A DNA stretch of 32,000 nucleotides from Acaryochloris marina MBIC11017. Lineage in GTDB: Bacteria > Cyanobacteriota > Cyanobacteriia > Thermosynechococcales > Thermosynechococcaceae. Position 1 is the first letter of the stretch. Each line of letters begins with the position of its first letter. The position numbers and the translations under genes were made by a program. Below, in pieces: positions 3,681 through 26,495 of this stretch. Where the stretch lies: contig NC_009925.1 of the NCBI RefSeq assembly GCF_000018105.1, positions 690,001-722,000 on the forward strand, given 5' to 3'. Under the pieces are notes generated by a model. It was not told where the DNA came from. It did not search any database and was given only the letters and a program-made list of their open reading frames with translations.

Positions 3681-4838
3681 CTAGGATTCCTTCGGCATCA
3701 CAGGGTAACCCCGCACGGCGGTATCAATCACTTGGGTGGATTTAATCCGGCGAGAGAAGAGAGCCAAGGTTTCTACGGCTCGCAGAATGCCATAGGAGAG
3801 CCAGCCTCGCAGAGCACTGGCTTGGCCATCAAAAGGACGGCAGCGAGCCAGATCGGGTTCTAGGACCTGTTGGCGAAACGTCTCAATTACAGTGGGATTA
3901 GAAAAAATGGCCAGGACTTCTTCTTCAATGCGATAGCTCAAAAAATCAAAATTAGACGAACCCACCACCAGATAGCGATCGTCCACTAGAGCTGCTTTCA
4001 TATGGCTCATGCCGTCGTAGAGACGAACGTCAAACCCGGACCGTTGGGCCTCCCACAACAGATAATCTCGGACAGTGCCTTTGTTGTTGCCTTCTGGGGT
4101 GAGTAGAGTGACGGGTACCCCCCGCTGAGGGAGTTCAGCCAAGGCAGCACAGAAGGGGAAGGTGAGATAGGGACTAATAATATGCAGAGATTTCTGAGCA
4201 GAGCACAGCAGATCTAGCAAGATTGCAAATGTCGCTTCATTCGTTCGGCCATTCAGGAGAAAAAACTCGCAGTCCCCGAAGTCAGCGTGGCTGGGTTGAG
4301 ATTGATCTTGCCAAGTGGCCATAAAATCTGCCCGCAGGAATTCCACAATGGCTGGGTCTTCTAACCGAAACATCAGGTCATGCCAAGCAAAGTTATGGTC
4401 GCTGAAGTTAAAACCACCAATGTAGGCAATCTGGTTGTCAATTACGATCAGCTTTTTATGGCTACGCCCTACAAAATGAATCAAGAAGGGCCCGACAGGA
4501 TTCGTAAATCGGACCTGCCCCCCCTCCTGGATAAGGGCTTCAAACATAGCGTGGGTCTGGCGGACTTCAGTTTTGAGGTCTTGATCTGACCAATATTTGG
4601 GATGGTAGATAAACTTGTCACTCTGAATAAATCGCGTGTAGTTATCGACCAGGATCTGTTTGCAAGGCGCTTCAGATGCCAGCATGGCCTCGATTACTTG
4701 CTGGCCGGTTCGGTCACCTTCAAAGGTCATCATCTGGAGCATAATTTCGTGATCAGCCGCTTGTAGATCGTTCTGGAGACGATGCCAAAAGGCATCTGCA
4801 TCAACAAGAAGCTCCACAGAATTCATATGCTGAACCAA
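3681..4838 (-). CDS. Phospholipase D superfamily protein with two HKD motifs (cardiolipin-synthase-like, no obvious TM)
   Basis: It has two HxKxxxxD motifs: SHKKLIVIDNQIAYIGGFNF and SHMKAALVDDRYLVVGSSNFD. The track start at 4838 is TTG; an ATG (MNSVELL) lies at 4826. Confidence 0.8.
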   Translation of the reverse strand: MVQHMNSVELLVDADAFWHRLQNDLQAADHEIMLQMMTFEGDRTGQQVIEAMLASEAPCKQILVDNYTRFIQSDKFIYHPKYWSDQDLKTEVRQTHAMFEALIQEGGQVRFTNPVGPFLIHFVGRSHKKLIVIDNQIAYIGGFNFSDHNFAWHDLMFRLEDPAIVEFLRADFMATWQDQSQPSHADFGDCEFFLLNGRTNEATFAILLDLLCSAQKSLHIISPYLTFPFCAALAELPQRGVPVTLLTPEGNNKGTVRDYLLWEAQRSGFDVRLYDGMSHMKAALVDDRYLVVGSSNFDFLSYRIEEEVLAIFSNPTVIETFRQQVLEPDLARCRPFDGQASALRGWLSYGILRAVETLALFSRRIKSTQVIDTAVRGYPVMPKES

Positions 4839-11932: not shown

Positions 11933-11973
11933 TCAAAGTCCCCCAGAATGGGGGATTTAGGGGGCCAATGCAG
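11933..11973. repeat. 41-bp inverted repeat, right arm, flanking the DUF559 gene
   Basis: The sequence tcaaagtcccccagaatgggggatttagggggccaatgcag pairs with 11464..11504 (40 of 41 positions). Confidence 0.9.
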
Positions 11974-12060
11974 GGTTTAACTGAGCTTTCAAAACAGCTT
12001 CTCAACGCGGCTCATGATGACAACAGAGAGCAACGGCTTTAAGTTTTATCCTGTAAGAAA

Positions 12061-13074
12061 TTACTTGGAAGTAACCTTAGAGCGCTCTGGAGTAACGGGA
12101 ATAGGCACCGCAGAATTCAACTTAGGTGAGAAGCGAACACTCAATTTTTGGATAAACATCCACACCGGCAATCCAAACAGTTGGTAAGCATGAAACATCG
12201 TGGCAATTACGACGCTTTGTGCCAAAGGAACCCCCATACCATTCAGAGAAAACGCCAAGGCCGCTTCATAGGTGCCCAAGTTTGCCATCGTGGTTGGCAC
12301 CGTCAGCCCCAAATTCAGAATAAATAGACAAATTAAAAGCTGCGGTAAAGACAGAACATGGCCTTGAGCCATACACAATAGCTGTAGCAGCAGACATTCC
12401 GTAAACCAATCCCCCAAATCCATGACCGCAGCATTGCGAATTTGGAGAGGATTACGAATCACCGCCAGTCCGACCTTAAACTTACGAAGCCACTGCCGTA
12501 GCTTTGGGAACCGTTGGCGCAAACTTCGTTGAAGTGCCCACAGGGCTATCCCCAGAAAAGGAACGCCGATCAGAACAATAATGCCTTTCTCCCACCAATC
12601 AACCTGGGGTAGACCAACAGAAACTTGTAAGGCCGATAGCACTGCCAAAGTGACCAAGATGCCCACATCCAGCACCTTATCCACTAAAATAACCGCCGTG
12701 GCTTCAGCCGCATCAATCTTGCGGCCCTTCGCATCTTTATCCTTGCGCAACAGGGCAATTTTGACGGCATGTCCAGCTTGGCTCAGCACGAAATTGCCAA
12801 TAAACTGTCCCGACACGTAGGTATTCGCTGCTTGTGCCCAACTCACCCCAGCCGCTTGGGGACAAAGCACCCATAAACGAGTTACCTGAAACACCATTTG
12901 CACCAAGGTAACCCCTAGCATTAGCACAAGCGCTTCGGGACTAAACCGCTGAAAGGCTTCTAGCAAATCACGGCCTTGGAGATTGATTTTTTGAAAGAGA
13001 AAAGTGAGTCCGAGTCCAACGCAAAACAGCATTAAGAGACGGACAAACGTTTTCTTATGCCAAAACTTATTCAT
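12061..13074 (-). CDS. Flippase-like / lysyl-PG-synthase TM-region family (UPF0104) integral membrane protein
   Basis: The product is polytopic and ends with TVPTTMANLGTYEAALAFSLNGMGVPLAQS, which resembles the P-x-x-P-G-G-x-G-x-x-E region of this family. The ATG at 13074 (MNKFWHKK) is preferred over the TTG at 13209. Confidence 0.55.
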   Translation of the reverse strand: MNKFWHKKTFVRLLMLFCVGLGLTFLFQKINLQGRDLLEAFQRFSPEALVLMLGVTLVQMVFQVTRLWVLCPQAAGVSWAQAANTYVSGQFIGNFVLSQAGHAVKIALLRKDKDAKGRKIDAAEATAVILVDKVLDVGILVTLAVLSALQVSVGLPQVDWWEKGIIVLIGVPFLGIALWALQRSLRQRFPKLRQWLRKFKVGLAVIRNPLQIRNAAVMDLGDWFTECLLLQLLCMAQGHVLSLPQLLICLFILNLGLTVPTTMANLGTYEAALAFSLNGMGVPLAQSVVIATMFHAYQLFGLPVWMFIQKLSVRFSPKLNSAVPIPVTPERSKVTSK

Positions 13075-13853
13075 GGATTTGCAGCAAGATGAGACTTGGC
13101 ATGAGCGGTTGAATGGGGGAATAACAACTTTGATATCTGCATGATTCGTCTCCTTCTCCACTGTTGGGTCTAATGCTCTACCTAGAGATGCTGATCGCCA
13201 ATTCTCCAATCATTCGTTTTAATTTGGGAAAAAGTTATCTGCATCATCTCTCTATACAAACGCGTGGTTTTGAGTAGAATCATCCTGTGACCTGGACAAT
13301 CAAAGCTTAGATCAACCAATATAAATGGATTGTTTTTTCAGATCTGAACTTGTCCCCCTTGAATCCAGGGAAGTCATTATTTCTAAGGGTTGACTTCTCC
13401 AAGATGAACAGACTTTTAGAGGCTTAATCCCCCTTGTATTTTGTAGCCATTATCCCTTTTTAGGGAGCGTTTGTCTTGGCAGCAAGTTCTGAGAAGTACG
13501 ATGCAACAGCCTCAAAACTTAGGAATTCCCTGCCTGGGACTTAAGCCAAAAACGCATCCTCACTCATCATTAACTATCGCTAGTATGGACAGGGAAAATG
13601 TGATTTCTGAGTCGCATATGCAACAAAATTGACCGTCACAGTTGATCGTCAAATCCATCTTTTAGAAGGAACTAGAGAGGCAATGGCCCGTCCAGGGAAG
13701 AGCCATTTACTGCCATCTGTACGCCAGAATACTTGAAGTCTAAAGCATCCCTAAACTACAGTAATGTGATGCAGATCCGCCTTCATTGTGATGCAAGTAC
13801 TAGCGGGTTTAGATGCTCAAATTTAGGATTTTGCTACTGCAGATTTTGACCCT

Positions 13854-15647
13854 ATGACCCAACCCTCAACTCTAGTCGACTTACTGCGAGAGCGGTCTCA
13901 GCTCCAGTCTGATTTAACGGCCTATACCTTTTTGGCCGACGGCAAAAACGAATCCGGGACTCTCACCTACGCCACCTTGGATTTGCAAGCTCGGGCAATT
14001 GCAGCCGCAATACAGGCCCTAACCGCCCGAGGCACAAACGTTCTGGTCGTTTATCCCTACGATGCCGGACTCGAATTTGTATCCGCATTTTTTGGCTGTC
14101 TCTATGCCGGGGTGGTAGCGGTTACTGATAATCCCCCCCGGAAACCTGAAGCCATTGCCAAGCTCCAAATTCGGGCGAAAGCCTCGGAAGCCACGGTGTT
14201 GGTTTCCACTGCAGGATTTTTGGAGCATCTGAAAAACCAGATGAAAAAGAATCCCGATTTAGCCCCGTATTTGAATCAATTGACCTGGCTGGCAACGGAT
14301 ACTGTACCCACGGATCAAGCCTCTACCTGGACCCAGCCGGAGTTAGAAACCGATACTCTAGCCTTCCTCCAATACACCTCGGGTTCCACTGGAGATCCGA
14401 AAGGGGTGATGGTTACCCACGGCAATATGCTCCATAACTCCAAGATGATTTATGAGAGCTTTGGCCATTCCGACCAGAGTCAGGGGGTGATTTGGCTGCC
14501 TCTGTTTCACGATATGGGGTTAGTGGGGGGTGTCCTCCAGCCTTTATATGGTGGCTTTCCGGTGACCTTGATGTCGCCGATTGCCCTGATCCAAAAACCG
14601 ATTTTGTGGTTAGAAGCCGTATCTAAATATGGGGCAACCACCAGCGGTGGACCCAACTTTGCCTACGATTTACTCTGCCAGAAGGTGAAGCCGAAGCAGC
14701 GAGACCAGCTAGATCTAAGTAAATGGGAAGTGGCCTTTTCCGGGGCAGAACCGATCAAAGCTGATACCCTCGATAAGTTTGTGGACTTCTTTGGTCCCTG
14801 TGGCTTCCGGCGAGAAGCTTTTTACCCCTGCTATGGTATGGCTGAAACGACCCTCTTTATTTCTGGGGGCCTGAAGTCAGAATCACCCATCGTTCGCTAT
14901 CTCGACAGTACGGCCCTGGCTGACAACAAGGTGGTTCCTGTGGAACCAGAATCTGACAAAGCCCAGGCCATTATCGGCTGTGGCCGCATGTGGTTAGGGG
15001 ATAAGGTTGCGATCGCAAATCCCGATACCCTGACAAAATGTGCGGAAAACCAAGTCGGTGAGATTTGGGTTGCCGGGGATGGCGTCGGCAAAGGGTACTG
15101 GAACAGACCCGACGTCACCGCCGAGGCCTTTCAGGCCCACTTAGCCGATACGGGCGAAGGACCCTTCCTGCGAACCGGAGATTTAGGCTTTGTCCAGGAT
15201 GGCGAAGTTTATATCACGGGCCGGATTAAAGATTTGATGATTATCTGGGGCCGAAACCAATATCCCCAGCTCATTGAACAGACCGTGGAGCAATGCCATC
15301 CCGCTCTCCGGCCTAATCATGGTGCCGCTTTTTCCATTCCCCTCAATGGTGAAGAGCATTTGGTGATTGTCCATGAGGTGGAACGAAACTTTTTCCGACG
15401 CCTCCCCGTCGAAGAGGTTATCGGAGCGATTCGTTTAGCCATTGCCGAGGACCATATGGCTGAAGTCTATGCCGTATTGCTCCTCAAGCCAGGTGCAATT
15501 CCCAAAACCTCTAGTGGCAAAATTCAACGCCGGGCTTGTCGGACTAAATTTTTAGAAAGCAGCTTTCAACCTGTTGCCGAGTGGAAACAAGAAACCCAAG
15601 GCAATATCTCCGATTTGATGGCGCCTATGGCTGCGAATCAACCGTAA
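13854..15647 (+). CDS. Fatty acyl-AMP ligase (FAAL, FadD32-like adenylating enzyme), copy 1
   Basis: The N-terminus is LVDLLRERS...TYATLDLQARAIAAA...GLEFVSAFFGCLYAGVVAV. Further motifs are LAFLQYTSGSTGDPKGVMVTHGN, GGPNFAYDL, YGMAETTL and IPKTSSGKIQR. Confidence 0.85.
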   Translation: MTQPSTLVDLLRERSQLQSDLTAYTFLADGKNESGTLTYATLDLQARAIAAAIQALTARGTNVLVVYPYDAGLEFVSAFFGCLYAGVVAVTDNPPRKPEAIAKLQIRAKASEATVLVSTAGFLEHLKNQMKKNPDLAPYLNQLTWLATDTVPTDQASTWTQPELETDTLAFLQYTSGSTGDPKGVMVTHGNMLHNSKMIYESFGHSDQSQGVIWLPLFHDMGLVGGVLQPLYGGFPVTLMSPIALIQKPILWLEAVSKYGATTSGGPNFAYDLLCQKVKPKQRDQLDLSKWEVAFSGAEPIKADTLDKFVDFFGPCGFRREAFYPCYGMAETTLFISGGLKSESPIVRYLDSTALADNKVVPVEPESDKAQAIIGCGRMWLGDKVAIANPDTLTKCAENQVGEIWVAGDGVGKGYWNRPDVTAEAFQAHLADTGEGPFLRTGDLGFVQDGEVYITGRIKDLMIIWGRNQYPQLIEQTVEQCHPALRPNHGAAFSIPLNGEEHLVIVHEVERNFFRRLPVEEVIGAIRLAIAEDHMAEVYAVLLLKPGAIPKTSSGKIQRRACRTKFLESSFQPVAEWKQETQGNISDLMAPMAANQP

Positions 15648-15720
15648 TTTAAAGTTCCCCGAATATTGTCCTCCTTGGTGCAAGCCAAGGACCGATTGTC
15701 TACCCCAAAACTCCAGTGCT

Positions 15721-16494
15721 ATGAATGTTCTCAGTCAACCGGATGGAAATTGGCAGGCCAAAATTCGCCAACGCTTTCTCAAGGCAGCCGAGCAGCTCCT
15801 GCGGCGATTCGAAGGTCTGATCGAGTCCCACTCCCTCGTGGGCAATACGCCGTTTATCGAGGCTCAATCGTTCCCCTGGGTCAAGCAGCTAGAGCATAAC
15901 TGGCCCACCATTGCTCAAGAATTAGATGACATTCTTCAGTATCAGGATGAGCTGCCCAATTTCCAAGATTTATCGCCGGATCAGTATCGTCTCACCCAAG
16001 ACGATCGCTGGAAAACCTTTTTCTTCTATGCCTTTGGCGTCAAAGCGGCCCAAAACTGCGCCCGCTGTCCTCAAACCAGCCAGCTGATTGAATCGATTCC
16101 GGGGATGAAAACGGCCTTTTTCTCGATTCTGTTGCCCCAGAAACATATTCCCGAGCATTGCGGGGTCTTTAAAGGGGTCGTCCGGTACCATCTGGCTCTG
16201 AAAGTGCCTCAACCGGAGACCCAATGTCGTCTCCGGGTGGCGGACCAAATTCGCCATTGGCAACAGGGACAAGGGTTAATCTTTGATGATCGATTTCCCC
16301 ATGAGGTTTGGAACGATAGCGACGAGGTGCGGGTCGTCCTGATTATTGATGTGGTCCGTCCTCTTCAGTTCCCCGTCTCCCTCCTCAATCAGACCCTGAT
16401 TCGCCTGATTTCCTGGTCGCCCTTTGTCCAGGATGCTAAAAAGCTGCAAAACCAGTGGGAAAAGCGCTTAGGTGCCATTATGAAATCCCACTAA
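15721..16494 (+). CDS. Aspartyl/asparaginyl beta-hydroxylase family (AspH/LpxO-like Fe(II)/2OG oxygenase), paralog 1
   Basis: It reads CPQTSQLIESIPGMKTAFFSILLPQKHIPEHCG...VRYHLALKVP...IFDDRFPHEVWNDSDEVRVVLIIDVVRP. I recall human ASPH as HTGPTN...FDDSFEHEVW, which this resembles. Confidence 0.75.
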   Translation: MNVLSQPDGNWQAKIRQRFLKAAEQLLRRFEGLIESHSLVGNTPFIEAQSFPWVKQLEHNWPTIAQELDDILQYQDELPNFQDLSPDQYRLTQDDRWKTFFFYAFGVKAAQNCARCPQTSQLIESIPGMKTAFFSILLPQKHIPEHCGVFKGVVRYHLALKVPQPETQCRLRVADQIRHWQQGQGLIFDDRFPHEVWNDSDEVRVVLIIDVVRPLQFPVSLLNQTLIRLISWSPFVQDAKKLQNQWEKRLGAIMKSH

Positions 16495-16557
16495 TCCAAT
16501 TCTGGTGTCTGGCTCAGGCATCAAGATTAAGGATTTATTAATATAGTCAACACATGA

Positions 16558-17304
16558 TTGGAAGATAGTCCCGTGAAAGAATTTCTCGAAACTTTAATGC
16601 GTCAGCATATTGGGGGTTTGGTTTCGCGTTCGTCCCTCGTGGGCCACCAAACCTTCTTTGACCCCAGTATCTTTAACTGGATTCCGCTTTTGGAAAAAAA
16701 CTGGCGCACCATTCGCCAGGAACTAGAACAGGTTCTCCAATATAAAGAGGCATTGCCCAATTTTGAAGAATTGGTGGAGTACGATGCCGACCTCACCAAA
16801 GATACCCAGTGGAAAATGTTCGCCTTCTACGCCTATGGGATTAAGGCCGAAAAAAATTGTGATCGCTGCCCGGAAACCACCCGGCTGATCGAACAAATCC
16901 CCGGGTTAAAAACCGCTTTTTTCTCGATCTTGCTGCCTCACCAGCGCATCCCCCCCCACCGAGGCCCTTATAACGGAGTGCTGCGTTATCACCTCGGCCT
17001 GATGGTCCCAGAGGCCACGGACCAATGCGGCATCCGCGTTGGCAAGGATATTCGCCATTGGCAAGAAGGCCAAAGCCTCGTCTTTGATGATTCCTTCGAA
17101 CATACGGCCTGGAACGACACGGATAGTGTCCGCGTCGTCCTGTTTTTGGATGTGGTCCGACCCGTCAAATTTCCTATTTCTCTGTTGAATCAAGCCGTGA
17201 TTCAGCTCTTTTCTTTGTCCCCCTATATTCAAGGCGCAGCCGCCAATCAAAAGAAGTGGGACAAGCGATTGGATGCCGTATTGGCAGCGAAAGGGACCCA
17301 ATAG
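16558..17304 (+). CDS. Aspartyl/asparaginyl beta-hydroxylase family oxygenase, paralog 2
   Basis: It reads CPETTRLIEQIPGLKTAFFSILLPHQRIPPHRGPYNGVLRYHLGLMVP...VFDDSFEHTAWNDTDSVRVVLFLDVVRP. The start is uncertain: TTG 16558, GTG 16573 or ATG 16597. Confidence 0.75.
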   Translation: MEDSPVKEFLETLMRQHIGGLVSRSSLVGHQTFFDPSIFNWIPLLEKNWRTIRQELEQVLQYKEALPNFEELVEYDADLTKDTQWKMFAFYAYGIKAEKNCDRCPETTRLIEQIPGLKTAFFSILLPHQRIPPHRGPYNGVLRYHLGLMVPEATDQCGIRVGKDIRHWQEGQSLVFDDSFEHTAWNDTDSVRVVLFLDVVRPVKFPISLLNQAVIQLFSLSPYIQGAAANQKKWDKRLDAVLAAKGTQ

Positions 17305-17377
17305 CGCCGTGACAGATCATGGTGTACATTGGCTGGAGTGTTAATGCGCCCGATTGTTGATTTCTAAGCCCTAACTT

Positions 17378-18160
17378 ATGAGTGCATTGAGCCAGTTTTA
17401 CACCGATTTCAAAACCAAAAACCGTGAGGTTGCCCTCAAAGCAGGGGAAGGCTTGTTGCGTCAGTTGGAGCGCATCATTCGAACCTCTTCCCTAGTGGGC
17501 AACTCAACCTTCTTCGATCCTGATCAGTTTGAATGGGTCAAAACCTTCGAAGATAACTGGCAGGTGATTCGGAAGGAACTCGATGAGATTCTCAAATATA
17601 GAGACGACCTGCCGAATTTCCAAGATATTTCCCCGGATCAGTACAACATAACCAATGATCAGCGCTGGAAAACCTTTTTCTTCTATGCCTATGGGGTGAC
17701 GGCAGAGCAAAACTGCCGCCTCTGCCCGGAAACGGCCAAGCTGTTGTCCAGTATCCCCGGGGTTAAAACGGCTTTTTTCTCGATTTTGCTGCCCCAAAAG
17801 CAAATCCCGCCCCACCGAGGTCCCTTTAATGGCGTGTTGCGCTACCATTTGGGCTTGATCATCCCTGAGGCTGCCTCAGACTGTGGGATTCGGGTGGGAG
17901 ACGATGTCCGCCATTGGCAAGAAGGCAAAAGCCTCGTGTTCGATGACTCCTTCGAGCATGAAGCCTGGAATAATACCGATGAAGTTCGGGTGGTCCTCTT
18001 TGTCGATATTGTCCGTCCCCTCAAATTCCCTGCGTCCCTGCTGAATCAATTTATTATTCAGCTGATTGCCTGGTCTCCCTATATCAAGGATGCCGAAACC
18101 AATCAAAAGAAATGGGACCAGCGGTTACAAGGGCTGTTCAAATCGAAAACGAATTCATAA
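17378..18160 (+). CDS. Aspartyl/asparaginyl beta-hydroxylase family oxygenase, paralog 3
   Basis: It reads CPETAKLLSSIPGVKTAFFSILLPQKQIPPHRGPFNGVLRYHLGLIIP...VFDDSFEHEAWNNTDEVRVVLFVDIVRP. Confidence 0.75.
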   Translation: MSALSQFYTDFKTKNREVALKAGEGLLRQLERIIRTSSLVGNSTFFDPDQFEWVKTFEDNWQVIRKELDEILKYRDDLPNFQDISPDQYNITNDQRWKTFFFYAYGVTAEQNCRLCPETAKLLSSIPGVKTAFFSILLPQKQIPPHRGPFNGVLRYHLGLIIPEAASDCGIRVGDDVRHWQEGKSLVFDDSFEHEAWNNTDEVRVVLFVDIVRPLKFPASLLNQFIIQLIAWSPYIKDAETNQKKWDQRLQGLFKSKTNS

Positions 18161-18173
18161 TCCTGTAGTCAGG

Positions 18174-20054
18174 ATGGAGTATAACGTGGCTGAAACAACC
18201 AATTGGGACGCCAAGGTCGAAGGAACCTGTCCGCCAAAGGTAGACAGTTTGGTGGATCTGCTCCGCTATCGAGCGACTCACCAGCCAGACCATAAAGGCT
18301 TTACCTTTCTCGTCGATGGTGAAGACGAAACCCTCCATCTCACCTATGCAGAGCTGGATGCCAAAGCCCGTGCGATCGCAGCTGCGTTACAGTCGGCCTG
18401 TCAACCGGGTGATCGAGCCCTATTGGTTTATCAGCCTGGATTAGAATATGTGGCCGCTTTCTTTGGCTGCCTCTATGCGGGCGTCACGGCAGTCCCCATT
18501 TATCCACCCCGTCCGAATCGCTCCCTGATGCGATTGCAGAGTGTGATCGCGGACTCCCAAGCCATTTTTGCCCTGACCACCTCTCAAATTCTGTCGAAGC
18601 TAGAACGACAGTTGATTGATGCCCCAGAGTTAAGGGCCCTAAAGTGGTTGGCCACTGATAGTCTTAGCGTCACCGAACCTCGTCAAGCTTGGCAAGAGAT
18701 TCATCCCCAAGGTCAAGATTTAGCCTTTCTTCAATACACCTCTGGCTCAACCGCAACGCCCAAAGGGGTGATGATTACCCATCACAATCTGTTGCAGAAC
18801 CTGGCGCTGATTCATCAATGCTTTGAGCATAGTTCTCAGTGCCAAGGCGTGATTTGGCTACCGCCCTACCACGATATGGGCTTGATCGGCGGGATTTTGC
18901 AGCCTTTATACGGCGGGTTCCCCGTGGCCCTGATGTCTCCCTTTATGTTTTTACAGAGTCCCATTCGCTGGCTGCAAGCCATTTCTCGCTATCGGGCGAC
19001 CACCAGTGGGGGACCAAATTTTGCCTACGATTTATGTTTGCGCAAGATCAAGCCAGAACAGATTGAAACCCTAGATCTAAGCTCCTGGCGGGTGGCCTTT
19101 AATGGCGCAGAACCCATCAGTGCTCAAACCCTCGAAGACTTTGCCACCAAGTTTGCATCCTGTGGATTTCGGCCTGAAGCCTTTTTCCCCTGTTATGGCC
19201 TTGCCGAAGCCACCCTGATCGTTTCTGGGGGACAGAGACAGGCTAAACCTGCGCTTAAAACGGTCCAAGGGGCAGCCTTAGAACAACATCAAGTCGTCTC
19301 TGCTCACTTAGGAGATACAGATGCTCGCACCTTAGTGGGCTGCGGTACTGCTCTCCAAGGCCAAGAAATTGTGATCGCCAATCCTGAAACCCTCCAACAA
19401 TGTTCAGCCGAAGAAGTCGGCGAAATTTGGGTGTCTGGCCAAAGCATTGCCCAGGGATACTGGCGGCAATCGGAAGTATCTGGGGAAACCTTTCAGGCCC
19501 ATTTGGCCGATACCGGAGCTGGCCCCTTTTTACGCACCGGAGACTATGGCTTTTTGGTGGGTTCCGAGCTGTTTGTGACCGGACGCCTAAAGGACGTGAT
19601 TATCATCAATGGCCGCAATCATTATCCCCAGGACATTGAGTTGACCGTCGTCCAAAGCTATCCGGGGATTCGACCCAATTGTGCTGCAGCGTTTTCGATT
19701 ACGGAAGCCGGGGAAGAACGGCTAGTCGTAGTGGCGGAATTGGAGCGGAACTATATCAATCGCTATCAAAAAAATGGCAAGAAGCCCTCTTCCCAACCGC
19801 CTCAGCTCAATAATTTTGTCCCCCCCACCAGCCTGACTGAGGAATCAGAACCCGCTGCCGTCGAAAAAGATATTCTCACTCAAATCCGTCGAGCCGTTGC
19901 CAAAGACCATGACCTGCAGATTCATGCCCTGCTGCTGCTCAAACCCGGCAGTATTCCCAAGACCTCTAGTGGTAAAATCCAGCGGTTTACCTGTAGAGCC
20001 AAGTTTCTAGAGGGAGACCTAGAGAGCGTGGCCAAGAGTGTGCCCCGCGCCTAA
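18174..20054 (+). CDS. Fatty acyl-AMP ligase (FAAL), copy 2
   Basis: It reads LVDLLRYRATHQPDHKGFTFL...LTYAELDAKARAIAAAL...GLEYVAAFFGCLYAGVTAVPIYPPRPNRS, then LAFLQYTSGSTATPKGVMITHHN and IPKTSSGKIQR. The ATG at 18174 (MEYNV) avoids overlap with the upstream hydroxylase; the track start at 18066 is rejected. Confidence 0.85.
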   Translation: MEYNVAETTNWDAKVEGTCPPKVDSLVDLLRYRATHQPDHKGFTFLVDGEDETLHLTYAELDAKARAIAAALQSACQPGDRALLVYQPGLEYVAAFFGCLYAGVTAVPIYPPRPNRSLMRLQSVIADSQAIFALTTSQILSKLERQLIDAPELRALKWLATDSLSVTEPRQAWQEIHPQGQDLAFLQYTSGSTATPKGVMITHHNLLQNLALIHQCFEHSSQCQGVIWLPPYHDMGLIGGILQPLYGGFPVALMSPFMFLQSPIRWLQAISRYRATTSGGPNFAYDLCLRKIKPEQIETLDLSSWRVAFNGAEPISAQTLEDFATKFASCGFRPEAFFPCYGLAEATLIVSGGQRQAKPALKTVQGAALEQHQVVSAHLGDTDARTLVGCGTALQGQEIVIANPETLQQCSAEEVGEIWVSGQSIAQGYWRQSEVSGETFQAHLADTGAGPFLRTGDYGFLVGSELFVTGRLKDVIIINGRNHYPQDIELTVVQSYPGIRPNCAAAFSITEAGEERLVVVAELERNYINRYQKNGKKPSSQPPQLNNFVPPTSLTEESEPAAVEKDILTQIRRAVAKDHDLQIHALLLLKPGSIPKTSSGKIQRFTCRAKFLEGDLESVAKSVPRA

Positions 20055-20418
20055 AAGAAAATAGCAACTCTTGGAACTTTTGCAGGCAAAAAGTCAGTCT
20101 CAACTTACACACTTATCTCAGGAAGGACATCAGCCATGCTTACCATGAGTCAGTTTCAATTGACGCAACCTTGATCACTTTTCCCCCCTCTGGACTAAGT
20201 TATAACTACCCTATAGCGGCAAGGGAATAGACCGATCAGCGGCATTACTAAGGAGATTGGAACATTTAGTTTCTGAGATTTTAAAGAATGGGCCAATTGA
20301 TTAATCTCTACATGCCACCTTGTTGCTGTTAAATAAATCTTTTATGATGAACCGAAGTTTTAACTTAAATTCACAATTCGGTTTAACCTGTTGTCTAAGC
20401 AATTAGAGTAAAAACAAT

Positions 20419-20874
20419 ATGCCAATCCAGGATAACTATCAAAGCACGGTCGCTGTGGCGGAAGCACAGCCTCAGGGCGCTGTTTCGCCCTTGGAGACTT
20501 CCCCTAAACTAGCAGATATTCAAGCCTGGTTAAAAAAACACTTGGCAACTTCTTTGGAAATGAGTCCAGAGGAAATTGATATCGATGTGGATTTCATTGA
20601 TTACGGAATGAACTCCGTAGAAGTCGTCAATATTTCCGGTGAACTAGAACATTTTCTGGGTCGCCGTTTGGATCCCATGCTGGTTTTAGATTATTCCAAT
20701 ATTCGTGAATTATCAGAGCACCTAGTAACCGATAATGAAGGCAGTTCTCCCACTACTTCAGCATTACCCACAGAAGCCGATGAACTCCTATCCAAATTGG
20801 ATGTACTGAGTGACGATGAAGTGGATGGTCTGCTGAACGCGATGTTGTCAGAGCATAATGTTGCCCATGAGTAA
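20419..20874 (+). CDS. Stand-alone acyl/peptidyl carrier protein (PP-binding) with N- and C-terminal extensions
   Basis: The sequence DVDFIDYGMNSVEVVNISGELEHFLGRRL fits the DxxFxxxGxDS carrier motif, with the candidate phosphopantetheine Ser66 at 20614..20616. The protein is 151 aa with an acidic tail, and the gene overlaps the next gene by 17 nt. Confidence 0.7.
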   Translation: MPIQDNYQSTVAVAEAQPQGAVSPLETSPKLADIQAWLKKHLATSLEMSPEEIDIDVDFIDYGMNSVEVVNISGELEHFLGRRLDPMLVLDYSNIRELSEHLVTDNEGSSPTTSALPTEADELLSKLDVLSDDEVDGLLNAMLSEHNVAHE

Positions 20875-22192
20875 TTCCTCTAATTCCCTGGATCATCTCT
20901 CCGCAGAAGAAAAGCGCGAATTGCTGGCGGAATTATTGCAGAAAAAAGCCGACGCTGAACCTGAGATTCCTCCCGAGCACTATCGCTTCGATCTCTACCC
21001 TGAATATCTCCAGCTCAAAGAGCAACAAGCCCAACTGCAGGCGAATGATATCCGCAACCCTTATTTCTCCGTCCATGAAGGGATTGCCCGAGATACCACC
21101 CGCATTGATGGAAAAGAGCTGATCAACTTCTCCAGCTACAACTATTTAGGGCTAGCCGGACATCCGACGGTTTCTGAAACAGCTAAACAAGCCATTGACC
21201 GCTACGGCACTTCGGTGTCAGCCAGCCGCCCCGTTTCTGGTGAGAAACCCTTACATTTAGAGCTTGAGCAAGGAATTGCAGACTTTATTGGTGTAGATGA
21301 CGCCGTTCTTTACGTCGCGGGTCACGGTACCAACGTCACAACCATTGGGCATTTATTTGGCCGTAATGACCTGATTCTTTACGATGCCTATAGTCACAAC
21401 AGTATTTTTCTTGGCTGTGTACTGTCGGGCGCTCGGGCCATGTCGTTTGCCCATAATGATGTAGCCGATCTAGAAAGACTTTTAAAGCAGCATCGTCATC
21501 GCTATCAGCGAGTTCTGGTAGTGATTGAAGGGGTCTACAGTGCCGATGGCGACATTCCTGAATTACCTAAATTTATTGAACTCAAAGAACGCCACAAAGC
21601 TTTTCTGATGGTGGATGAAGCCCACTCGATTGGTGTTTTGGGCGAACATGGTCAGGGTATTAGCGAGCATTTTGGCATTGACCCCAAAACGGTCGATATT
21701 TGGATGGGCACCCTTAGTAAGTCCTTTGCCAGCTGTGGCGGATATATTGCCGGTTCTCAGCCCCTGATTGAATATCTCAAATGTACGGCACCGGGATTTA
21801 TCTATAGTATTGGCATTACCCCTGCCAATACGGCGGCCTCTTTGGCGGCGCTACAAGTTTTGAAACAAGAACCTGAACGCGTAGCTAGGCTCCATGCTCG
21901 GGCTCAGTTGTTCCTCGACTTGGCTAAAGAAAAAGGATTGAATACTGGTACCAGTCACGGTTCAGCGGTGATTCCGGTGATGGTGGGGGAGACCCTTAAA
22001 GCCCTGCACTTGTCGCAGCAGCTATTTCACCAAGGGATTAATGTTCAGCCCATGACCTTCCCGGTGGTGCCCCAAAACGAGGCTCGACTTCGCTTTTTCC
22101 TCAGCAGCACCCATACGGAAGCGCAAATTCGCCAAACCGTAGAGACCCTCGCTGCTGCCCTAGCTCATATTGAGACTGAAATCCCTGCCTAA
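20858..22192 (+). CDS. PLP-dependent alpha-oxoamine synthase (serine palmitoyltransferase / BioF / KBL family)
   Basis: It has NFSSYNYLGLAGHP, MVDEAHSIGVLGEHGQG and GTLSKSF, with the PLP lysine codon at 21719..21721. The N-terminal extension reads NPYFSVHEG...IDGKELI. Confidence 0.85.
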   Translation: MLPMSNSSNSLDHLSAEEKRELLAELLQKKADAEPEIPPEHYRFDLYPEYLQLKEQQAQLQANDIRNPYFSVHEGIARDTTRIDGKELINFSSYNYLGLAGHPTVSETAKQAIDRYGTSVSASRPVSGEKPLHLELEQGIADFIGVDDAVLYVAGHGTNVTTIGHLFGRNDLILYDAYSHNSIFLGCVLSGARAMSFAHNDVADLERLLKQHRHRYQRVLVVIEGVYSADGDIPELPKFIELKERHKAFLMVDEAHSIGVLGEHGQGISEHFGIDPKTVDIWMGTLSKSFASCGGYIAGSQPLIEYLKCTAPGFIYSIGITPANTAASLAALQVLKQEPERVARLHARAQLFLDLAKEKGLNTGTSHGSAVIPVMVGETLKALHLSQQLFHQGINVQPMTFPVVPQNEARLRFFLSSTHTEAQIRQTVETLAAALAHIETEIPA

Positions 22193-22206
22193 TTGGGGGT
22201 GCCCAT

Positions 22207-22878
22207 ATGGCTGAAGTAGTGTGGATTGCGCGGCATGGCCATCGGCAAGATTATGCTGACTTAGGCTGGCGAAAACGGGCAGAACGTCCCCATGACCCAG
22301 GTCTTTCGGCTGCAGGAGTAGTGGAGGCTCAAGATCTGGCTCAGTGTCTTAAGTCAGAATCCATTGAGCATATCGTTGCCTCCCCTTTTTTACGAACTGT
22401 TGTAACAGCCGCTCATACAGCAACGGCGCTAGCTTTGCCGATCCAGCTTGAAGCCGGTCTAGGGGAACATATGAGCTCCAAGCTGTTTAAGCATCGTCCA
22501 GAACCACTGCCTGTCGATGAAATGGCCGATCGATTCCCTCAAGTTGATCGACTCTACCAGAGCCAAATTATTCCTCCTTTTCCAGAAACAGAAGAAGAAG
22601 CGCTCGCTCGAGCCGGAAAAGCACTGCAGCAATTATTGGACACCTTTTCAGGGCCGCTGCTGATTGTTACCCATGAGTTGATTGGCAAAGGAGCGGTTTG
22701 GGGGCTGGTCAATCAACGCCCTCCCGTTCGCTTTCCCACCTGTAGCTTAACCAAACTGGTCCATGAGCAGGGAGAATGGAAGATGGCTTTTACGGGCAAA
22801 ACTTCCCATCTCAGCCAGCCCCGCCACCCGATTCCAGAGATCTGGAATTATCTATTACGGCAAATTGTTCATCGCTAA
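22207..22878 (+). CDS. Histidine phosphatase superfamily (phosphoglycerate-mutase-like) protein
   Basis: It has the N-terminal RHG motif (VVWIARHGHRQDY) and a distal LLIVTHE histidine. Confidence 0.7.
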   Translation: MAEVVWIARHGHRQDYADLGWRKRAERPHDPGLSAAGVVEAQDLAQCLKSESIEHIVASPFLRTVVTAAHTATALALPIQLEAGLGEHMSSKLFKHRPEPLPVDEMADRFPQVDRLYQSQIIPPFPETEEEALARAGKALQQLLDTFSGPLLIVTHELIGKGAVWGLVNQRPPVRFPTCSLTKLVHEQGEWKMAFTGKTSHLSQPRHPIPEIWNYLLRQIVHR

Positions 22879-22932
22879 GGGTGAGGGTTCCAAGGCAATT
22901 TCTATCATTCAGGACAACCTTTGAGTTAGCGA

Positions 22933-23754
22933 ATGGACTTTAATCAGCGCCATATCATGATTACGGGTGGATCGAGTGGCATTGGTAAAGCCACTGCCTG
23001 CCTCCTTGCCAATCAGGGGGCCAATCTCTCCTTGATTGCTCGCACACCGAGTCAATTAGACATCGCAGTCCAGGAGATTACAGCGGCTCAGGTCCAGTCA
23101 GACCAGCAGGCTTTAGCATTCGCAGCAGATGTAGCTGACCGAGAAGCCTCAACTCAAGCCATCCAAACCGCAACGGCTCAACTGGGACCGCCCGATATTT
23201 TAATTACCGCTGCAGGGATAGCTCGTCCAGGCTATTTTCAAGAAATACCGCTAGAGGTTTTTGAGCAAACGATGGCGGTCAACTACTTTGGTACCTTGTA
23301 TGCGATCAAAGCGGTTTTGCCCCTTATGGAGGAACGTCAGCGGGGGCATATTGTGTTGATTTCGTCAGGGGCAGGACTGGTAGGACTCTTTGGTTATACC
23401 CCCTATAGCCCTAGTAAGTTTGCACTGCGGGGGTTGGCCGAATCTTTACGGGGAGAACTGAAAGGGATTGGAATTGGTTTATCGATTGTTTATCCCCCCG
23501 ATACCGATACACCTCAACTGGAAGCAGAGAATAAAACCAAGCCTCCAGAAACAAAAAATATCACCGCCTCGGCGGAGATGTGGCAACCGGAAGCTGTGGC
23601 CCAAGAGATTGTCAAAGGGATTAAACACCAAAAGTTTGTGGTGGCGCCTGGTTTAGAAATGGGGCTATTGGCTAAGCTGCACAGTGTTTTAGCCCCAGGG
23701 CTGAACTGGTATTTTGATCGGATTGTTACGAAGACGAGATCGCAATCCTCTTAA
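22933..23754 (+). CDS. Short-chain dehydrogenase, 3-ketodihydrosphingosine reductase (KDSR/FVT1)-like
   Basis: It reads [11 protein letters not shown]...[15 protein letters not shown]...[24 protein letters not shown]. I recall human KDSR as [10 protein letters not shown]...YSASKFAIRGLAEAL...[24 protein letters not shown], and the two track along the whole length. Confidence 0.75.
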   Translation: [273 protein letters not shown]

Positions 23755-25034
23755 TGGACGTTTCTAACCCCAAAGACCTGAACCTGAATCGCTTGCAGGA
23801 GTGCGATCGCAGTTTTCATGATTGGTATCGCTTTATCTTGTCCTTTCCGCCCCATTTAGTTCGCACCTATATCAATAAGTTTGGTCTGACCGAAAAAAGC
23901 ACGCTACTAGATCCCTTTTGTGGCACCGGGACAACGATTGTAGAGGCCAAAAAGCAGGGCATTCCTGCCGTTGGCACCGAAGCAACCCCCATGTCCTGGT
24001 TTGCCTCCCGGACCAAAACCACCTGGACCGTTGACCCGGATCAGGTGCGAAGGGCTGCAGAACGGATTTGCGATCGCCTGGCCACCGATATTACACCTAA
24101 AAATACAACCCACCTAAAAAAGCTGGCACCAGACGCGCGATCTCTCCTGCTTACAAACTCCATTGGCGATCTGCCCCTCCATAAATGTTTGGTCCTGCGA
24201 GAGGCTATCGATGCCGAATCCAATCTGCCACTGCGACATCTTCTTCAGCTCGCCCTCGCCCATACCAGCGTCCACACTGCTAGCAACCTCCGATTTGCCC
24301 CAGAAGTGGGTATTAGCCGCCAGCGAAAACAGGATGCCCCTGTCTTGACGGCTTGGCATCAGCAGGTTTTGGCGATGGCAGCGGACTTAGCAACCATTGA
24401 TCGCCCCCCTGGAACAATTTGTTATCACCAAGATGCCCGGGATTTAACCCGAATTCTGCAGCCAGAATCCATTGACGCGGTGATTACCTCTCCCCCCTAT
24501 CCGAATGAAAAAGACTATACCCGCACTACCCGACTAGAATCGGTGCTGCTTGGTTTTCTCAAGGACCCATCCGACTTGAAAGCTTATAAGCAATCACTGC
24601 TCCGCTCCAACACCCGCAATGCCTTTGCAGCGGATCAGGATGATTTATGGGTAGCAAACACACCGCAAATCACCCAGCTTGCTGCCACTATCGAACGCCG
24701 CCGGCTAGAATTGGGCAAAGATTCTGGGTTTGAGAAGTTATATCATAGGGTCACCTCCCTCTACTTTGGGGGCATGAAACGCCATTTTGCGAATTTGCGC
24801 CCCATCCTCAAACCGGGAGCCCAACTAGCCTATGTTGTTGGCGATCAAGCCTCTTTCCTTCAGGTTTTAATTCGAACCGGAGATCTATTGGCGGCCATTG
24901 CTGAAGAACTTGGCTATATAGTCCGGGACGTAGAGCTGTTTCGAACTCGCTTATCCAGTGTCACGGGCGAACAATTACGGGAAGAAGTCGTTTGGCTGGA
25001 ATGGCCAGGGTATAAGCGATTGTCCTCCCCCTAA
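23754..25034 (+). CDS. SAM-dependent amino-methyltransferase fold protein (N6/N4 DNA-methylase-like)
   Basis: Motif I is LLDPFCGTGTTIVEA near the N-terminus, and motif IV is AVITSPPYPNEKDY about 190 residues later. The start overlaps the SDR stop (TAATG at 23752..23756). Confidence 0.65.
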   Translation: MDVSNPKDLNLNRLQECDRSFHDWYRFILSFPPHLVRTYINKFGLTEKSTLLDPFCGTGTTIVEAKKQGIPAVGTEATPMSWFASRTKTTWTVDPDQVRRAAERICDRLATDITPKNTTHLKKLAPDARSLLLTNSIGDLPLHKCLVLREAIDAESNLPLRHLLQLALAHTSVHTASNLRFAPEVGISRQRKQDAPVLTAWHQQVLAMAADLATIDRPPGTICYHQDARDLTRILQPESIDAVITSPPYPNEKDYTRTTRLESVLLGFLKDPSDLKAYKQSLLRSNTRNAFAADQDDLWVANTPQITQLAATIERRRLELGKDSGFEKLYHRVTSLYFGGMKRHFANLRPILKPGAQLAYVVGDQASFLQVLIRTGDLLAAIAEELGYIVRDVELFRTRLSSVTGEQLREEVVWLEWPGYKRLSSP

Positions 25035-25040
25035 GCACAG

Positions 25041-26003
25041 ATGGACAGCGAAATGATAGCAACAACATCAACCCCGCCCGATCAGGGGTCACAAGAACAG
25101 TGGGCCTTGACCCTATCGATTATGGGATCCGCCGTCTTTGCCGTTTTGGGTGGGGTGTTTGGACTCTATACCCATTCTGGCGCTATCTTGCTGGACGGGT
25201 TTTATTCCCTGATGACCATGACCATGAGCTTTGTCAGTCTCAAGGTGGCAGCCCTAATCCAGGAAGGTCCCAGTCGGCGTTACCAGTTTGGCTATTACGG
25301 TTTTGAGCCTTTTATTAACACGATTAAAGGCATCATTGTTCTATCGGTTAGTTTGTTCGCTTTCGTTTCTGCGATAGAAGACTTACTGCATGGCGGTCGA
25401 GATCTTGTCGTGGGCCTAGCCTTGGCTTACGCGACCCTATCAACAGTCGGGTGTTTTACCTTCGCCATCTTGATGCATCGCTATGCTCAACGGTTGAACT
25501 TACCGTTGCTGGAGGTGGAAGCCCGGGACTGGACAGTAGATGGCTGTATCAGTAGCGCGGTAGCGTTGACCTTTGTAGTGACTTTGTTGCTGCAAGAAAC
25601 CTCCTGGAATATTTATCTCTCTTACGTTGACCCGCTGCTGGTTTCCATATTGGTGCTGATTATTATTCCGCTGCCCTTACGTACCGTATTTGAAGGCGTG
25701 AATCAGTTATTAGGGGTTGCTCCAGAAAGTGAGTTGGATCGAGAGATTCGCAAGACCATTTCCCAAGTTGCCCGCATTCAAAAACACCCCATCGATCGCT
25801 TTCATTTGCAGATGATGGTGCAAGGACGGGTGTTGTATGTGTTTATTCAGATCTTGGTCCCTGCTGAGTTTGGGGTGGATCGGGTGCAAGAACTAGACCA
25901 ACTGAGGCAGAAGTTTGCGGATGCGATCGCAGATTTACATCCATTTCCAGAAATCGATATTGTATTTACGGAAGATCCCTATTGGCTTAAAGATGGCCAA
26001 TAG
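25041..26003 (+). CDS. Cation diffusion facilitator (CDF) family transporter
   Basis: The product has six hydrophobic segments, reads SGAILLDGFYSL...RYQFGYYGFEP, and has a C-terminal cytoplasmic-domain-like region. It starts 6 nt after the MTase stop. Confidence 0.7.
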   Translation: MDSEMIATTSTPPDQGSQEQWALTLSIMGSAVFAVLGGVFGLYTHSGAILLDGFYSLMTMTMSFVSLKVAALIQEGPSRRYQFGYYGFEPFINTIKGIIVLSVSLFAFVSAIEDLLHGGRDLVVGLALAYATLSTVGCFTFAILMHRYAQRLNLPLLEVEARDWTVDGCISSAVALTFVVTLLLQETSWNIYLSYVDPLLVSILVLIIIPLPLRTVFEGVNQLLGVAPESELDREIRKTISQVARIQKHPIDRFHLQMMVQGRVLYVFIQILVPAEFGVDRVQELDQLRQKFADAIADLHPFPEIDIVFTEDPYWLKDGQ

Positions 26004-26054: not shown

Positions 26055-26495
26055 TTAGCTATCAATACCATGAATTATCAGCAACCAGAATTCTAGGCCC
26101 ACCATTATCAAGGGAAATCCAATTCCGGCCAAACCAAGCCAACTCCCAATATTCGCAAAGGCAACCAAAAACTTTTTTTTAGGATCGGTTTTATGCAATC
26201 GCACATGGCAGTATTGCAACCAGCTAGAGCAAAGACCGATGATGATAGATCCAATAATTCCTAAAGGAGCACTTATCAAAACCCAAGTCAGGGTTTTATT
26301 TTCCCCACTGATCAGTGTGAAGTTGGGCAAGAGAATAAAGCTAAATCCTTCGAGAATCACCCAAACTACTAAGGCACTCAAAATATCCTGCTGAGTGAGA
26401 AAAGAATCAATTACTTGAACGGGGGGCTTTGGTTTAGTTGGAGCCATATTCCCTAGTTTGTATTGGATAAAAGGATTGTCAAGTAGCCAAATCAT
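26055..26495 (-). CDS. Hypothetical integral membrane protein
   Basis: The 146-aa ORF has about 4 hydrophobic segments. I recognise no family. Confidence 0.4.
   Translation of the reverse strand: MIWLLDNPFIQYKLGNMAPTKPKPPVQVIDSFLTQQDILSALVVWVILEGFSFILLPNFTLISGENKTLTWVLISAPLGIIGSIIIGLCSSWLQYCHVRLHKTDPKKKFLVAFANIGSWLGLAGIGFPLIMVGLEFWLLIIHGIDS

Follow-up and report, generated by a model that had tools for sequence, protein, structure and literature searches.

In Pseudomonas fluorescens MYb115, the SgaABC system makes free C24–C28 sphinganines and phosphoglycerol derivatives of them, and its gene cluster includes a KDSR-like short-chain dehydrogenase/reductase (SDR) (Peters et al., Nat Commun 2025; PMC12134224). 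SgaB has been purified. It is a serine palmitoyltransferase (SPT) with a near-exclusive preference for L-serine, and sphinganine is not produced without it (PMC12134224). In Caulobacter, the dedicated ligase AasR acylates only a specialised acyl carrier protein (ACP), AcpR, and the SPT prefers that acyl-ACP (Padilla-Gomez et al. 2022; PMC9386255). As cited in PMC12134224, the Caulobacter-type pathway continues with the ceramide synthase bCerS and then with the epimerase-type CerR (Stankeviciute et al. 2022). Fungal systems cited in the same paper are those for fumonisin (Fum1/Fum8/Fum13), in which Fum8 uses alanine, and for sphingofungin, which uses aminomalonate. For cyanobacteria, no genetic basis or enzyme of sphingolipid synthesis was known, according to a 2022 study, and a BioF-like alpha-oxoamine synthase (AOS) of Nostoc punctiforme, the obvious candidate, made no 3-ketodihydrosphingosine (3-KDS) (PMC8895605). 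Here we analyze a gene cluster at positions 13854–26003 of a 32,000-nt stretch of the cyanobacterium Acaryochloris marina MBIC11017 (NC_009925.1, positions 690,001 to 722,000). This whole stretch is called the window, and coordinates refer to it. The cluster is probably a chromosomal pair of operons for making a serine-derived, hydroxylated long-chain (sphingoid) base by a carrier-protein route.

An ORF scan finds eleven plus-strand genes in the segment. Family assignments come from Pfam and NCBIfam profile scans of the window ORFs; these scans and direct reading of the sequence reproduce the genes, domains, gaps and overlaps that an earlier sequence-only reading had reported. The gene order is as follows: a fatty acyl-AMP ligase (FAAL1), three hydroxylases, a second ligase (FAAL2), ACP, AOS, a histidine phosphatase, the SDR, a methyltransferase and a CDF transporter. 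A 364-bp gap, 20055–20418, separates the FAAL2 and ACP genes. The ACP and AOS genes overlap, the SDR and methyltransferase genes overlap at a TAATG, 23752–23756, and 6 nt precede the CDF gene. Gene order, family membership, orthology and co-conservation are established directly; we infer all substrates and products from them.

The AOS (20858..22192, plus strand) is of the SgaB type and a predicted SPT. Its start may be ATG 20867, as in relatives, which gives 441 aa and an 8-nt overlap with the ACP gene. Compared with P. fluorescens SgaB (PfSgaB; sequence from the supplement of PMC12134224), the AOS shows 56% identity and 73% positives over 413 aa. The alignment includes a family-specific N-terminal extension, in which the AOS motif IPPEHYRFDLYPEY is aligned against VPEAFYRFDLHPGY of PfSgaB. 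Identity to Sphingobacterium SPT (SmSPT), E. coli BioF and E. coli Kbl is 33–36% (BioF, 33%). Lys288, the pyridoxal-phosphate lysine in TLSKS, as well as His180, Asp253, His256 and Arg410, align with SmSPT residues, and the catalytic residues are invariant in a 15-sequence family alignment. A genome-wide scan gave 80 best AOS loci, with homologues 51–86% identical. In a neighbor-joining tree, the window AOS and all 80 form one clade on a long branch apart from SmSPT, BioF and Kbl. Among the outcomes that would count against it, the sequence-only reading had named grouping with BioF in a strain lacking another bioF; the tree and the 33% identity place the AOS elsewhere. The AOS is assigned to the SgaB-type, carrier-protein-dependent SPT clade because of its identity to PfSgaB, its place in a single clade away from SPT, BioF and Kbl, and its conserved catalytic residues. 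Its specificity for serine is predicted by analogy with one characterised relative. The AOS scores below every NCBIfam equivalog cut-off: its highest score is for bioF (TIGR00858), 369.6 vs 426.45 bits, followed by the Bacteroidetes-type SPT (348 vs 640), Kbl (325 vs 460) and alpha-proteobacterial SPT (234 vs 670) models. The closest solved structures are scattered over SPT, BioF/KBL and Kbl.

The 80 loci span cyanobacteria, Planctomycetes, Acidobacteria, Myxococcota, Actinobacteria and many Proteobacteria; Planctomycetes account for 29 of these best loci. In at least 60 of the 80, the AOS is adjoined by or fused to a FAAL or a ~2500-aa highly reducing type-I polyketide synthase (PKS) that works iteratively, and one Pseudomonas locus has an sgaAB-type PKS-AOS pair. 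In Nitrosomonas, a Pontibacterium metagenome-assembled genome (MAG) and others (L078, L079 and L046), the sgaAB-type PKS-AOS pair has capsule export genes as neighbors (KpsS/KpsC-like, i.e., Capsule_synth; Wza-like; ABC-2), which hints at a PKS-derived base as a capsule lipid anchor in Proteobacteria. This capsule-linked pair presumably resembles wcbR/wcbT of Burkholderia capsule loci.

Coupling of the AOS to a carrier protein is seen in the gene arrangement: the ACP gene overlaps the AOS gene, and FAAL2 is upstream. The ACP (20419..20874, plus strand; PF00550, E 2e-14) is a stand-alone protein with the serine in a GMNS motif. In many cyanobacteria, ACP and AOS form one fused protein, and in a Planctomycete protein (L012) the fusion also takes in the FAAL. 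Such FAAL-ACP-AOS fusions, single proteins of 1080–1200 aa, are found in Planctomycetes, Acidobacteria (Pyrinomonadaceae) and Nostoc (L012, L015, L019 and L022), all three domains being confirmed by Pfam for L012 only. Fusion loci often have no other pathway gene nearby.

FAAL1 (13854..15647, plus strand; Pfam AMP-binding) and FAAL2 (18174..20054, plus strand) are 51% identical. The FAAL2 ORF is open from 18066, and its start is most likely ATG 18174, 13 nt past hydroxylase 3, giving 626 aa, as called in relatives. The top NCBIfam matches of the FAALs are FadD32, PRK12476, PRK05850 and FadD21, all of them FAAL families and all below equivalog cut-offs. The two ligases represent distinct orthologous lineages. 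FAAL1 is 59–61% identical to the hydroxylase-adjacent FAAL of Lyngbya and Moorena, and its type is always found beside hydroxylases. FAAL2 is 59–61% identical to the ACP/AOS-adjacent FAAL in Lyngbya, L006 and L086, and 55% identical to the FAAL domain of the Planctomycete fusion; its type is the ligase that accompanies ACP-AOS in minimal clusters and fusions.

Paralogues of FAAL2 are also found on three A. marina plasmids, each of which carries a FAAL 89% identical in protein (82–83% in DNA); the paralogue is annotated as a fatty acyl-AMP ligase. On pREC2 of A. marina MBIC10699 (L084), the FAAL, 12049–13929, lies among genes of metal homeostasis (cobW, zigA, a metallothionein, an ArsR/SmtB regulator and Fur-family regulators), and the plasmid gene table, which is incomplete, has no annotated ACP or AOS within 12 kb on either side. 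A plasmid location for the cluster was considered and rejected: the plasmids carry only FAAL2 paralogues, and the clusters of relatives are chromosomal. The nearest database proteins are from Acaryochloris, 97–99% identical, on chromosomal contigs of 2.0 and 5.7 Mb.

The SDR (22933..23754, plus strand; adh_short, E 3e-49) is KDSR/Tsc10-like. It carries the TGxxxGxG and YxxxK motifs of classical SDRs, and among all PDB chains its top match is the Tsc10 3-KDS reductase 8jat (113 bits). Seven other loci (L008, L019, L022, L032, L041, L089 and L097) have an orthologue with 60–69% identity next to the AOS; they belong to Microcystis, two Nostocaceae (one Nostoc minutum), a Thermosynechococcaceae MAG, an Acaryochloridaceae MAG, Moorena and a TARA metagenome contig. 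This conserved adjacency, which carries more weight than the structural match, supports a role of the SDR in reducing the C3 ketone of 3-KDS. Thus, the KDSR-like identification made earlier holds, with Tsc10 as best solved relative and the AOS-SDR pairing co-conserved. So does the proposal that FAAL, ACP, SPT-like AOS and KDSR-like reductase together fit ACP-dependent synthesis of a long-chain base, given how close the AOS is to a serine-specific enzyme.

The three hydroxylases, AspH/OlsC/LpxO-type Fe(II)/2-oxoglutarate dioxygenases, are encoded on the plus strand at 15721..16494, 16558..17304 and 17378..18160 (hydroxylases 1, 2 and 3). All are full-length PF05118 Asp_Arg_Hydrox proteins (E 4e-53, covering 1–157 of 157, for hydroxylase 1; 6e-57 for hydroxylase 2; 1e-59 for hydroxylase 3) with the iron-binding His motifs P-x-H-x-G ... 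F-x-H-E-x-W. No transmembrane segment was found in their sequences, and they are predicted to be soluble. Their best NCBIfam match is OlsC (261, 266 and 293 bits, respectively), followed by LpxO, below cut-offs; the assignment made here is to the PF05118 superfamily only. Hydroxylase 1 is found in L085, L093 and L096 and is missing from L081; hydroxylase 2 has an 83% orthologue in L081. Hydroxylase 3, the closest solved relative of which is human AspH, matches an Acaryochloris sp. CCMEE 5410 protein at 99% identity and has ~60% homologues across cyanobacteria.

Hydroxylases ~60% identical to those of the window also occur in loci with no AOS (L090, L094 and L095). In Microcoleaceae, there is a conserved set of GT1, GT2/MptA_B, DUF547 and hydroxylase genes. 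In Nostoc, a hydroxylase is found with a FAAL and a protein that, judged by eye, resembles GT28/MGDG-synthase.

The gene order of the window recurs in four other Acaryochloris-type assemblies, and with the recurrence of the orthologous set in Lyngbya, Limnoraphis and Moorena this goes beyond a chance arrangement. The A. marina and 'Moss Beach' strains (AOS 97% identical in the A. marina assembly) have the window order, with three hydroxylases and the methyltransferase. In relatives with 88% AOS identity the order is Rce1-like, PLD (minus strand), flippase-like (minus strand), FAAL1, two hydroxylases, FAAL2, ACP, AOS, phosphatase, SDR and CDF. A relative with 85% AOS identity has three hydroxylases and lacks the methyltransferase and the CDF transporter; in the Acaryochloridaceae MAG, phosphatase and methyltransferase are missing. 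The cluster of Lyngbya PCC 8106 and that of Limnoraphis comprise FAAL1, two hydroxylases, a Rieske oxygenase, FAAL2, ACP, AOS and a B12 radical-SAM enzyme. The orthologues in Moorena producens JHB are FAAL1 (61%), hydroxylase (60%), FAAL2 (60%), ACP-AOS (63%) and SDR (65%); they share their locus with a gene of GT21, the ceramide glucosyltransferase family, and other glycosyltransferases. Common to Lyngbya, Limnoraphis and Moorena is the FAAL1-hydroxylase-FAAL2-ACP-AOS set, and Moorena alone of the three has an SDR orthologue. A lack of co-conservation of the genes would have counted against the sequence-only reading; both parts of the cluster are conserved together in the Acaryochloris relatives, Lyngbya, Limnoraphis and Moorena.

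A more divergent case is the TARA contig L097, the AOS of which is 70% identical; it has a CylC-type halogenase, ACP, AOS, phosphatase (53%) and SDR (67%), with flippase-like and GT4 genes divergent upstream. In the sister clusters L086 (4141–11317) and L097 (8145–12864), the halogenase, a CylC-type dimetal-carboxylate enzyme located between FAAL and ACP-AOS, replaces the hydroxylases. The products of these two clusters should be chlorinated long-chain amino-ketones or amino-alcohols, to judge from the genes.

The proposed pathway is as follows. FAAL2 would adenylate a long-chain fatty acid and load it on the stand-alone ACP. The SgaB-type AOS would join the acyl-S-ACP and L-serine with decarboxylation, giving 3-KDS, and the Tsc10/KDSR-like SDR would reduce C3 to yield a 2-amino-1,3-diol. 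The two to three AspH/OlsC/LpxO-type dioxygenases would hydroxylate, most likely at the alpha carbon of a carbonyl group, by analogy with OlsC and LpxO; the site could be C2 of an activated fatty acyl chain, via FAAL1, or C4 of the keto-base, and the outcome a phytosphingosine-type base and/or a 2-hydroxyacyl chain. FAAL1 probably supplies a second or modified acyl chain. The histidine phosphatase is a recurrent accessory, and the PLD-like and flippase-like proteins probably attach a polar head group to the lipid and translocate it through the membrane.

The same genes can be read more ambitiously. That is, they might constitute a complete cyanobacterial sphingolipid route that can do without either known type of ceramide synthase, in which FAAL2, ACP, AOS and SDR make the base, the dioxygenases hydroxylate the base or an acyl chain beside the carbonyl, FAAL1 N-acylates the base, a head group is added and an MprF-like flippase exports the product. 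In that scheme FAAL1 would be an ATP-dependent N-acylating enzyme that places the acyl chain straight onto the base from acyl-AMP or acyl-ACP; the head group would come from a PLD-type transferase, or from GT21/GT4 enzymes in other lineages, and export would be to the outer leaflet. All of these elements together make an unlikely combination.

Several observations weigh against the serine-derived hydroxylated base. No bCerS, CerR or other N-acyltransferase was found in any ORF scanned across the window, so that the role proposed for FAAL1 is tentative. Two FAALs share a single carrier protein. The hydroxylase scores are far below the equivalog cut-offs (261–293 vs 450 bits for OlsC, 115–146 vs 500 bits for LpxO), and ~60% hydroxylase homologues also occur next to glycosyltransferases with no AOS, so that the substrate is uncertain. 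The cyanobacterial AOS sequences form a subclade of their own, and PfSgaB, at 56% identity, is the only member of the larger clade with known amino-acid specificity. The Tsc10 match of the SDR leads the next PDB match, at 101 bits, by only 12 bits. Linkage of the PLD-like and flippase-like genes consists of synteny in one genus plus one analogous case, L097. A promoter and terminator scan of 11.8–27.8 kb gave counts equal to those of shuffled sequence and is uninformative on operon structure. Field-collected M. producens yielded the glucosylceramide mooreaside A (PMC6272925), which fits the Moorena cluster; given the field origin of the material, the link is circumstantial. To our knowledge, no such lipid has been described from Acaryochloris.

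The most serious rival keeps the machinery and changes the substrate. Were the AOS to use Ala, Gly or another, possibly phosphorylated, amino acid, the product would be a 1-deoxy or otherwise non-sphingoid fatty amino-ketone or amino-alcohol, secreted as a specialised metabolite instead of serving as a membrane sphingolipid. Amino-acid specificity is unreadable from the AOS sequence, and sister clusters have tailoring of a natural-product style, namely, the CylC-type halogenase of L086 and L097 and the Rieske and B12 radical-SAM enzymes of Lyngbya and Moorena. The phosphatase between AOS and SDR could also point to a phosphorylated substrate or intermediate, although it has no specific similarity to phosphoserine phosphatases. 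Against this stand the strict serine specificity of the only characterised clade member and the head-group-type enzymes (the Moorena GT21, and those of L097 and Acaryochloris), which need a C1 hydroxyl that only serine supplies. We consider this alternative improbable, if well worth keeping in mind. Very little credit is given to a BioF function, that is, to a locus serving biotin synthesis in the host. It is true that bioF is the top-scoring NCBIfam model and that several homologues are named 8-amino-7-oxononanoate synthase. However, the score falls under the curated cut-off, identity to E. coli BioF is 33% vs 56% to PfSgaB, the genetic partners of the AOS are a dedicated ACP, two FAALs and a KDSR-like reductase, and there are no bio genes in the window. 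Moreover, cyanobacterial BioF homologues are ~394-aa proteins described as a separate group (PMC8895605). This rival has next to no chance.

A further possibility is that the cluster consists of two unrelated neighbors: a first block of FAAL1, hydroxylases and FAAL2, making 2-hydroxy fatty acids for other lipids, for instance lipid A or glycolipids, and a second block of ACP, AOS and SDR, making an amino alcohol. The 364 bp between the blocks, the hydroxylase homologues that lie beside glycosyltransferases with no AOS, and the hydroxylase-FAAL pair of Nostoc speak for such a division. OlsC and LpxO act on finished membrane lipids, which also fits it. Yet orthologous blocks are kept together in Acaryochloris, Lyngbya, Limnoraphis and Moorena despite rearrangements, block 1 lacks a carrier protein of its own, and FAAL2 is orthologous to the ligase supplying ACP-AOS in fusions and in clusters of minimal make-up. 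Because its length is conserved and it contains a conserved element, the gap looks like internal regulation. Division into two independent units is unlikely, and a single pathway to a hydroxylated sphingoid base is favored.

The conserved element is a non-coding block of ~130 nt immediately 5′ of the ACP gene (20288..20418, plus strand). It is nearly identical in the window, L085 and L081, whereas the 5′ part of the gap diverges and the coding genes of the assemblies sharing the block are only 79–88% identical. The FAAL2-ACP gap is kept at 300–380 bp, even in Lyngbya. A structured RNA is not supported, as the fold z-score of the block is −0.04 and it has no Rfam match; an Rfam scan of the whole window gave zero matches. 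The block is probably a regulatory site at the DNA level, i.e., a promoter/operator or 5′ leader.

The histidine phosphatase (branch 1; 22207..22878, plus strand; PF00300 His_Phos_1) lies between the AOS and SDR genes in L081, L085, L093 and L096, and is absent in L032, Moorena and Lyngbya. Since the divergent TARA contig L097 also has it in this position (53% orthologue), the phosphatase is judged a recurrent member of the cluster. Among solved structures it comes closest to yeast YNL108C and Tfc7, with a weak match to each. Identification as a PspA-type phosphoserine phosphatase is not supported by these relatives or by the NCBIfam match, which is partial and only 26 bits.

The next gene (23754..25034, plus strand), which has a short amino-methyltransferase match, had been proposed as an N-methylase-type tailoring enzyme, and this assignment is not supported. 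Its motifs DPFCGTGT and TSPPY, read in the sequence, correspond to motifs I and IV of amino-methyltransferases that act on nucleic acids. Homologues 55–62% identical across cyanobacteria are named DNA methyltransferase, one of them cytosine-N4-specific, and the Leptolyngbya orthologue has a housekeeping context between the FtsH and IspH genes. The gene is not in the clusters of L081–83, L032, L096, L097, Moorena and Lyngbya, and is absent from the relatives with 85–88% AOS identity. The enzyme is classed as a DNA (N4-cytosine/N6-adenine type) methyltransferase and, because its gene is in the operon only in the A. marina subclade, as a passenger outside the pathway. The CDF cation-efflux transporter (25041..26003, plus strand; PF01545), with weak NCBIfam matches to MamM, ZitB and MntE, is present in L032, L081, L085 and L093 and absent in L096. 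It appears to be a variable neighbor; its link to the pathway is doubtful, and its earlier inclusion in the cluster is not upheld, as it is dispensable. A 146-aa small membrane protein (26055–26495, minus strand) with about four hydrophobic segments and no family match is kept directly downstream of the cluster in L032, L081, L085 and L096, with the CDF gene present or not.

Two upstream genes, missed by the sequence-only reading, probably belong to the system. The flippase-like membrane protein (12061..13074, minus strand; PF03706 and TIGR00374), of the LPG_synthase_TM/MprF transmembrane family, has multiple hydrophobic segments. Its ORF is open to 13209, and the probable start gives 337 aa. 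It holds the same position, divergent from FAAL1, in L081, L082 and L085. The PLD-superfamily protein (3681..4838, minus strand; Pfam PLDc_2/PLDc) is cardiolipin-synthase-like and soluble. Both of its HKD motifs, HxK(x)4D, can be read, and its best NCBIfam matches are cardiolipin synthase and ClsB, below cut-off. In L081 and L082 it has an 80% orthologue, separated by 131 bp from the gene of the flippase-like protein, directly upstream of FAAL1. The PLD-like protein is a candidate head-group transferase, and we infer its membership in the system. In L097, a protein of the flippase-like Pfam family, together with a GT4 glycosyltransferase, is the divergent neighbor of a different AOS cluster; on this gene order, a flippase-like protein with a head-group enzyme is a recurrent neighbor of AOS clusters. 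PLD and flippase-like genes inside the Lyngbya cluster were considered as well and rejected, the ORFs being a Rieske oxygenase and an IS605 transposase.

Between the PLD-like gene and the flippase-like gene, the window has a ~7-kb insertion, 4839–12060. This block has ORFs for a cNMP-binding EAL protein (5256–6575), a CHAT-TIR-AAA_35 protein (6735–8918), an AAA_35-WD40 protein (8884–11268) and a DUF559 endonuclease-like ORF (11505–11780), and looks like a defence or signalling island. The flanks (219–3107, 27594–27737, 28345–29420 and 30392–31081) are decayed, with IS1-, Mutator- and DDE-type transposase ORFs and a radical-SAM/SPASM gene split into two ORFs. The Rce1-like gene is reduced to its C-terminal half (3158–3598). 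The only GNAT nearby, at 27594–27737, is a truncated remnant, the last 48 codons.

The cluster family, which occurs in Acaryochloris, Lyngbya, Limnoraphis, Moorena, Nostoc, Microcystis and others, is a concrete, testable candidate for a first genetic handle on cyanobacterial sphingolipid synthesis. With it, the PKS-linked SgaB system described in 2025 gains a counterpart supplied by FAAL and ACP, apparently a common one among cyanobacteria and Planctomycetes. How bacteria hydroxylate sphingoid bases or their acyl chains may become clear from the FAAL-hydroxylase sub-module; dioxygenase hydroxylation beside a carbonyl, if true, would be a new route by which phytosphingosine-type bases or 2-hydroxyacyl chains are formed. 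In the literature covered, which is incomplete, no description of the FAAL/ACP-fed form, the FAAL-hydroxylase sub-module or cyanobacterial sphingolipid genes was found, and AOS enzymes are unmentioned in the FAAL reviews and the cyanobacterial fatty-acid and halogenase papers examined.

The core chemistry is already known: the ligase-ACP-SPT logic is proven in Caulobacter, and the AOS clade and KDSR-type step are proven or proposed in Pseudomonas. The earlier statement that no pathway with this gene set had been characterised is thus true of the full set and untrue of its core, which is shared by SgaABC (PMC12134224) and AasR/AcpR/Spt (PMC9386255). Like SgaABC, the Acaryochloris cluster has an AOS of the same clade (56%, with the N-terminal extension) that would receive its acyl chain bound to a carrier protein and not to CoA; it also has a KDSR-type SDR of eukaryote-like character and lacks a recognisable ceramide synthase. 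The products of SgaABC are free long-chain bases with optional phospho-head groups. The earlier suggestion of a free tailored base is plausible, as SgaABC makes free sphinganines with no recognised ceramide synthase; its N-methylation lapses with the DNA methyltransferase. Unlike SgaABC, in which a ~2500-aa iterative type-I PKS builds the chain, FAAL2 would recruit fatty acids onto a stand-alone ACP. The cluster also goes beyond SgaABC in having a second FAAL, two to three AspH/OlsC-type hydroxylases, the histidine phosphatase and the flippase-like and PLD-like neighbors. Its host is a cyanobacterium; the main text of PMC12134224 does not mention cyanobacteria, and the cyanobacterial genus names searched for are absent from its supplements.

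The three-part logic of ligase, ACP and SPT is shared with AasR-AcpR-Spt of Caulobacter and other Rhodobacteria. In contrast, the SPT clade is different (234 vs 670 bits with the alpha-proteobacterial SPT model), and AasR is an acyl-ACP synthetase, not a FAAL. Neither bCerS nor CerR was found in the window ORFs, and the reductase here is a classical Tsc10-like SDR. With the fungal sphinganine analogues, as they are cited in PMC12134224, the cluster shares the use of an AOS on a long chain held by a carrier, followed by a KDSR-like 3-ketoreductase and oxygenase tailoring toward a polyhydroxylated free amino-alcohol. The likeness is one of pathway logic, as the fungal systems are eukaryotic, PKS-based and equipped with other hydroxylase families. 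Finally, the hydroxylases resemble OlsC, the ornithine-lipid 2-hydroxylase, and LpxO, the lipid A 2-hydroxylase, in their full-length PF05118 domain and iron-binding His motifs. Unlike OlsC, they have no ornithine-lipid genes nearby and are tied to a FAAL and SPT cluster; therefore, a lipid substrate other than those of OlsC and LpxO is expected.

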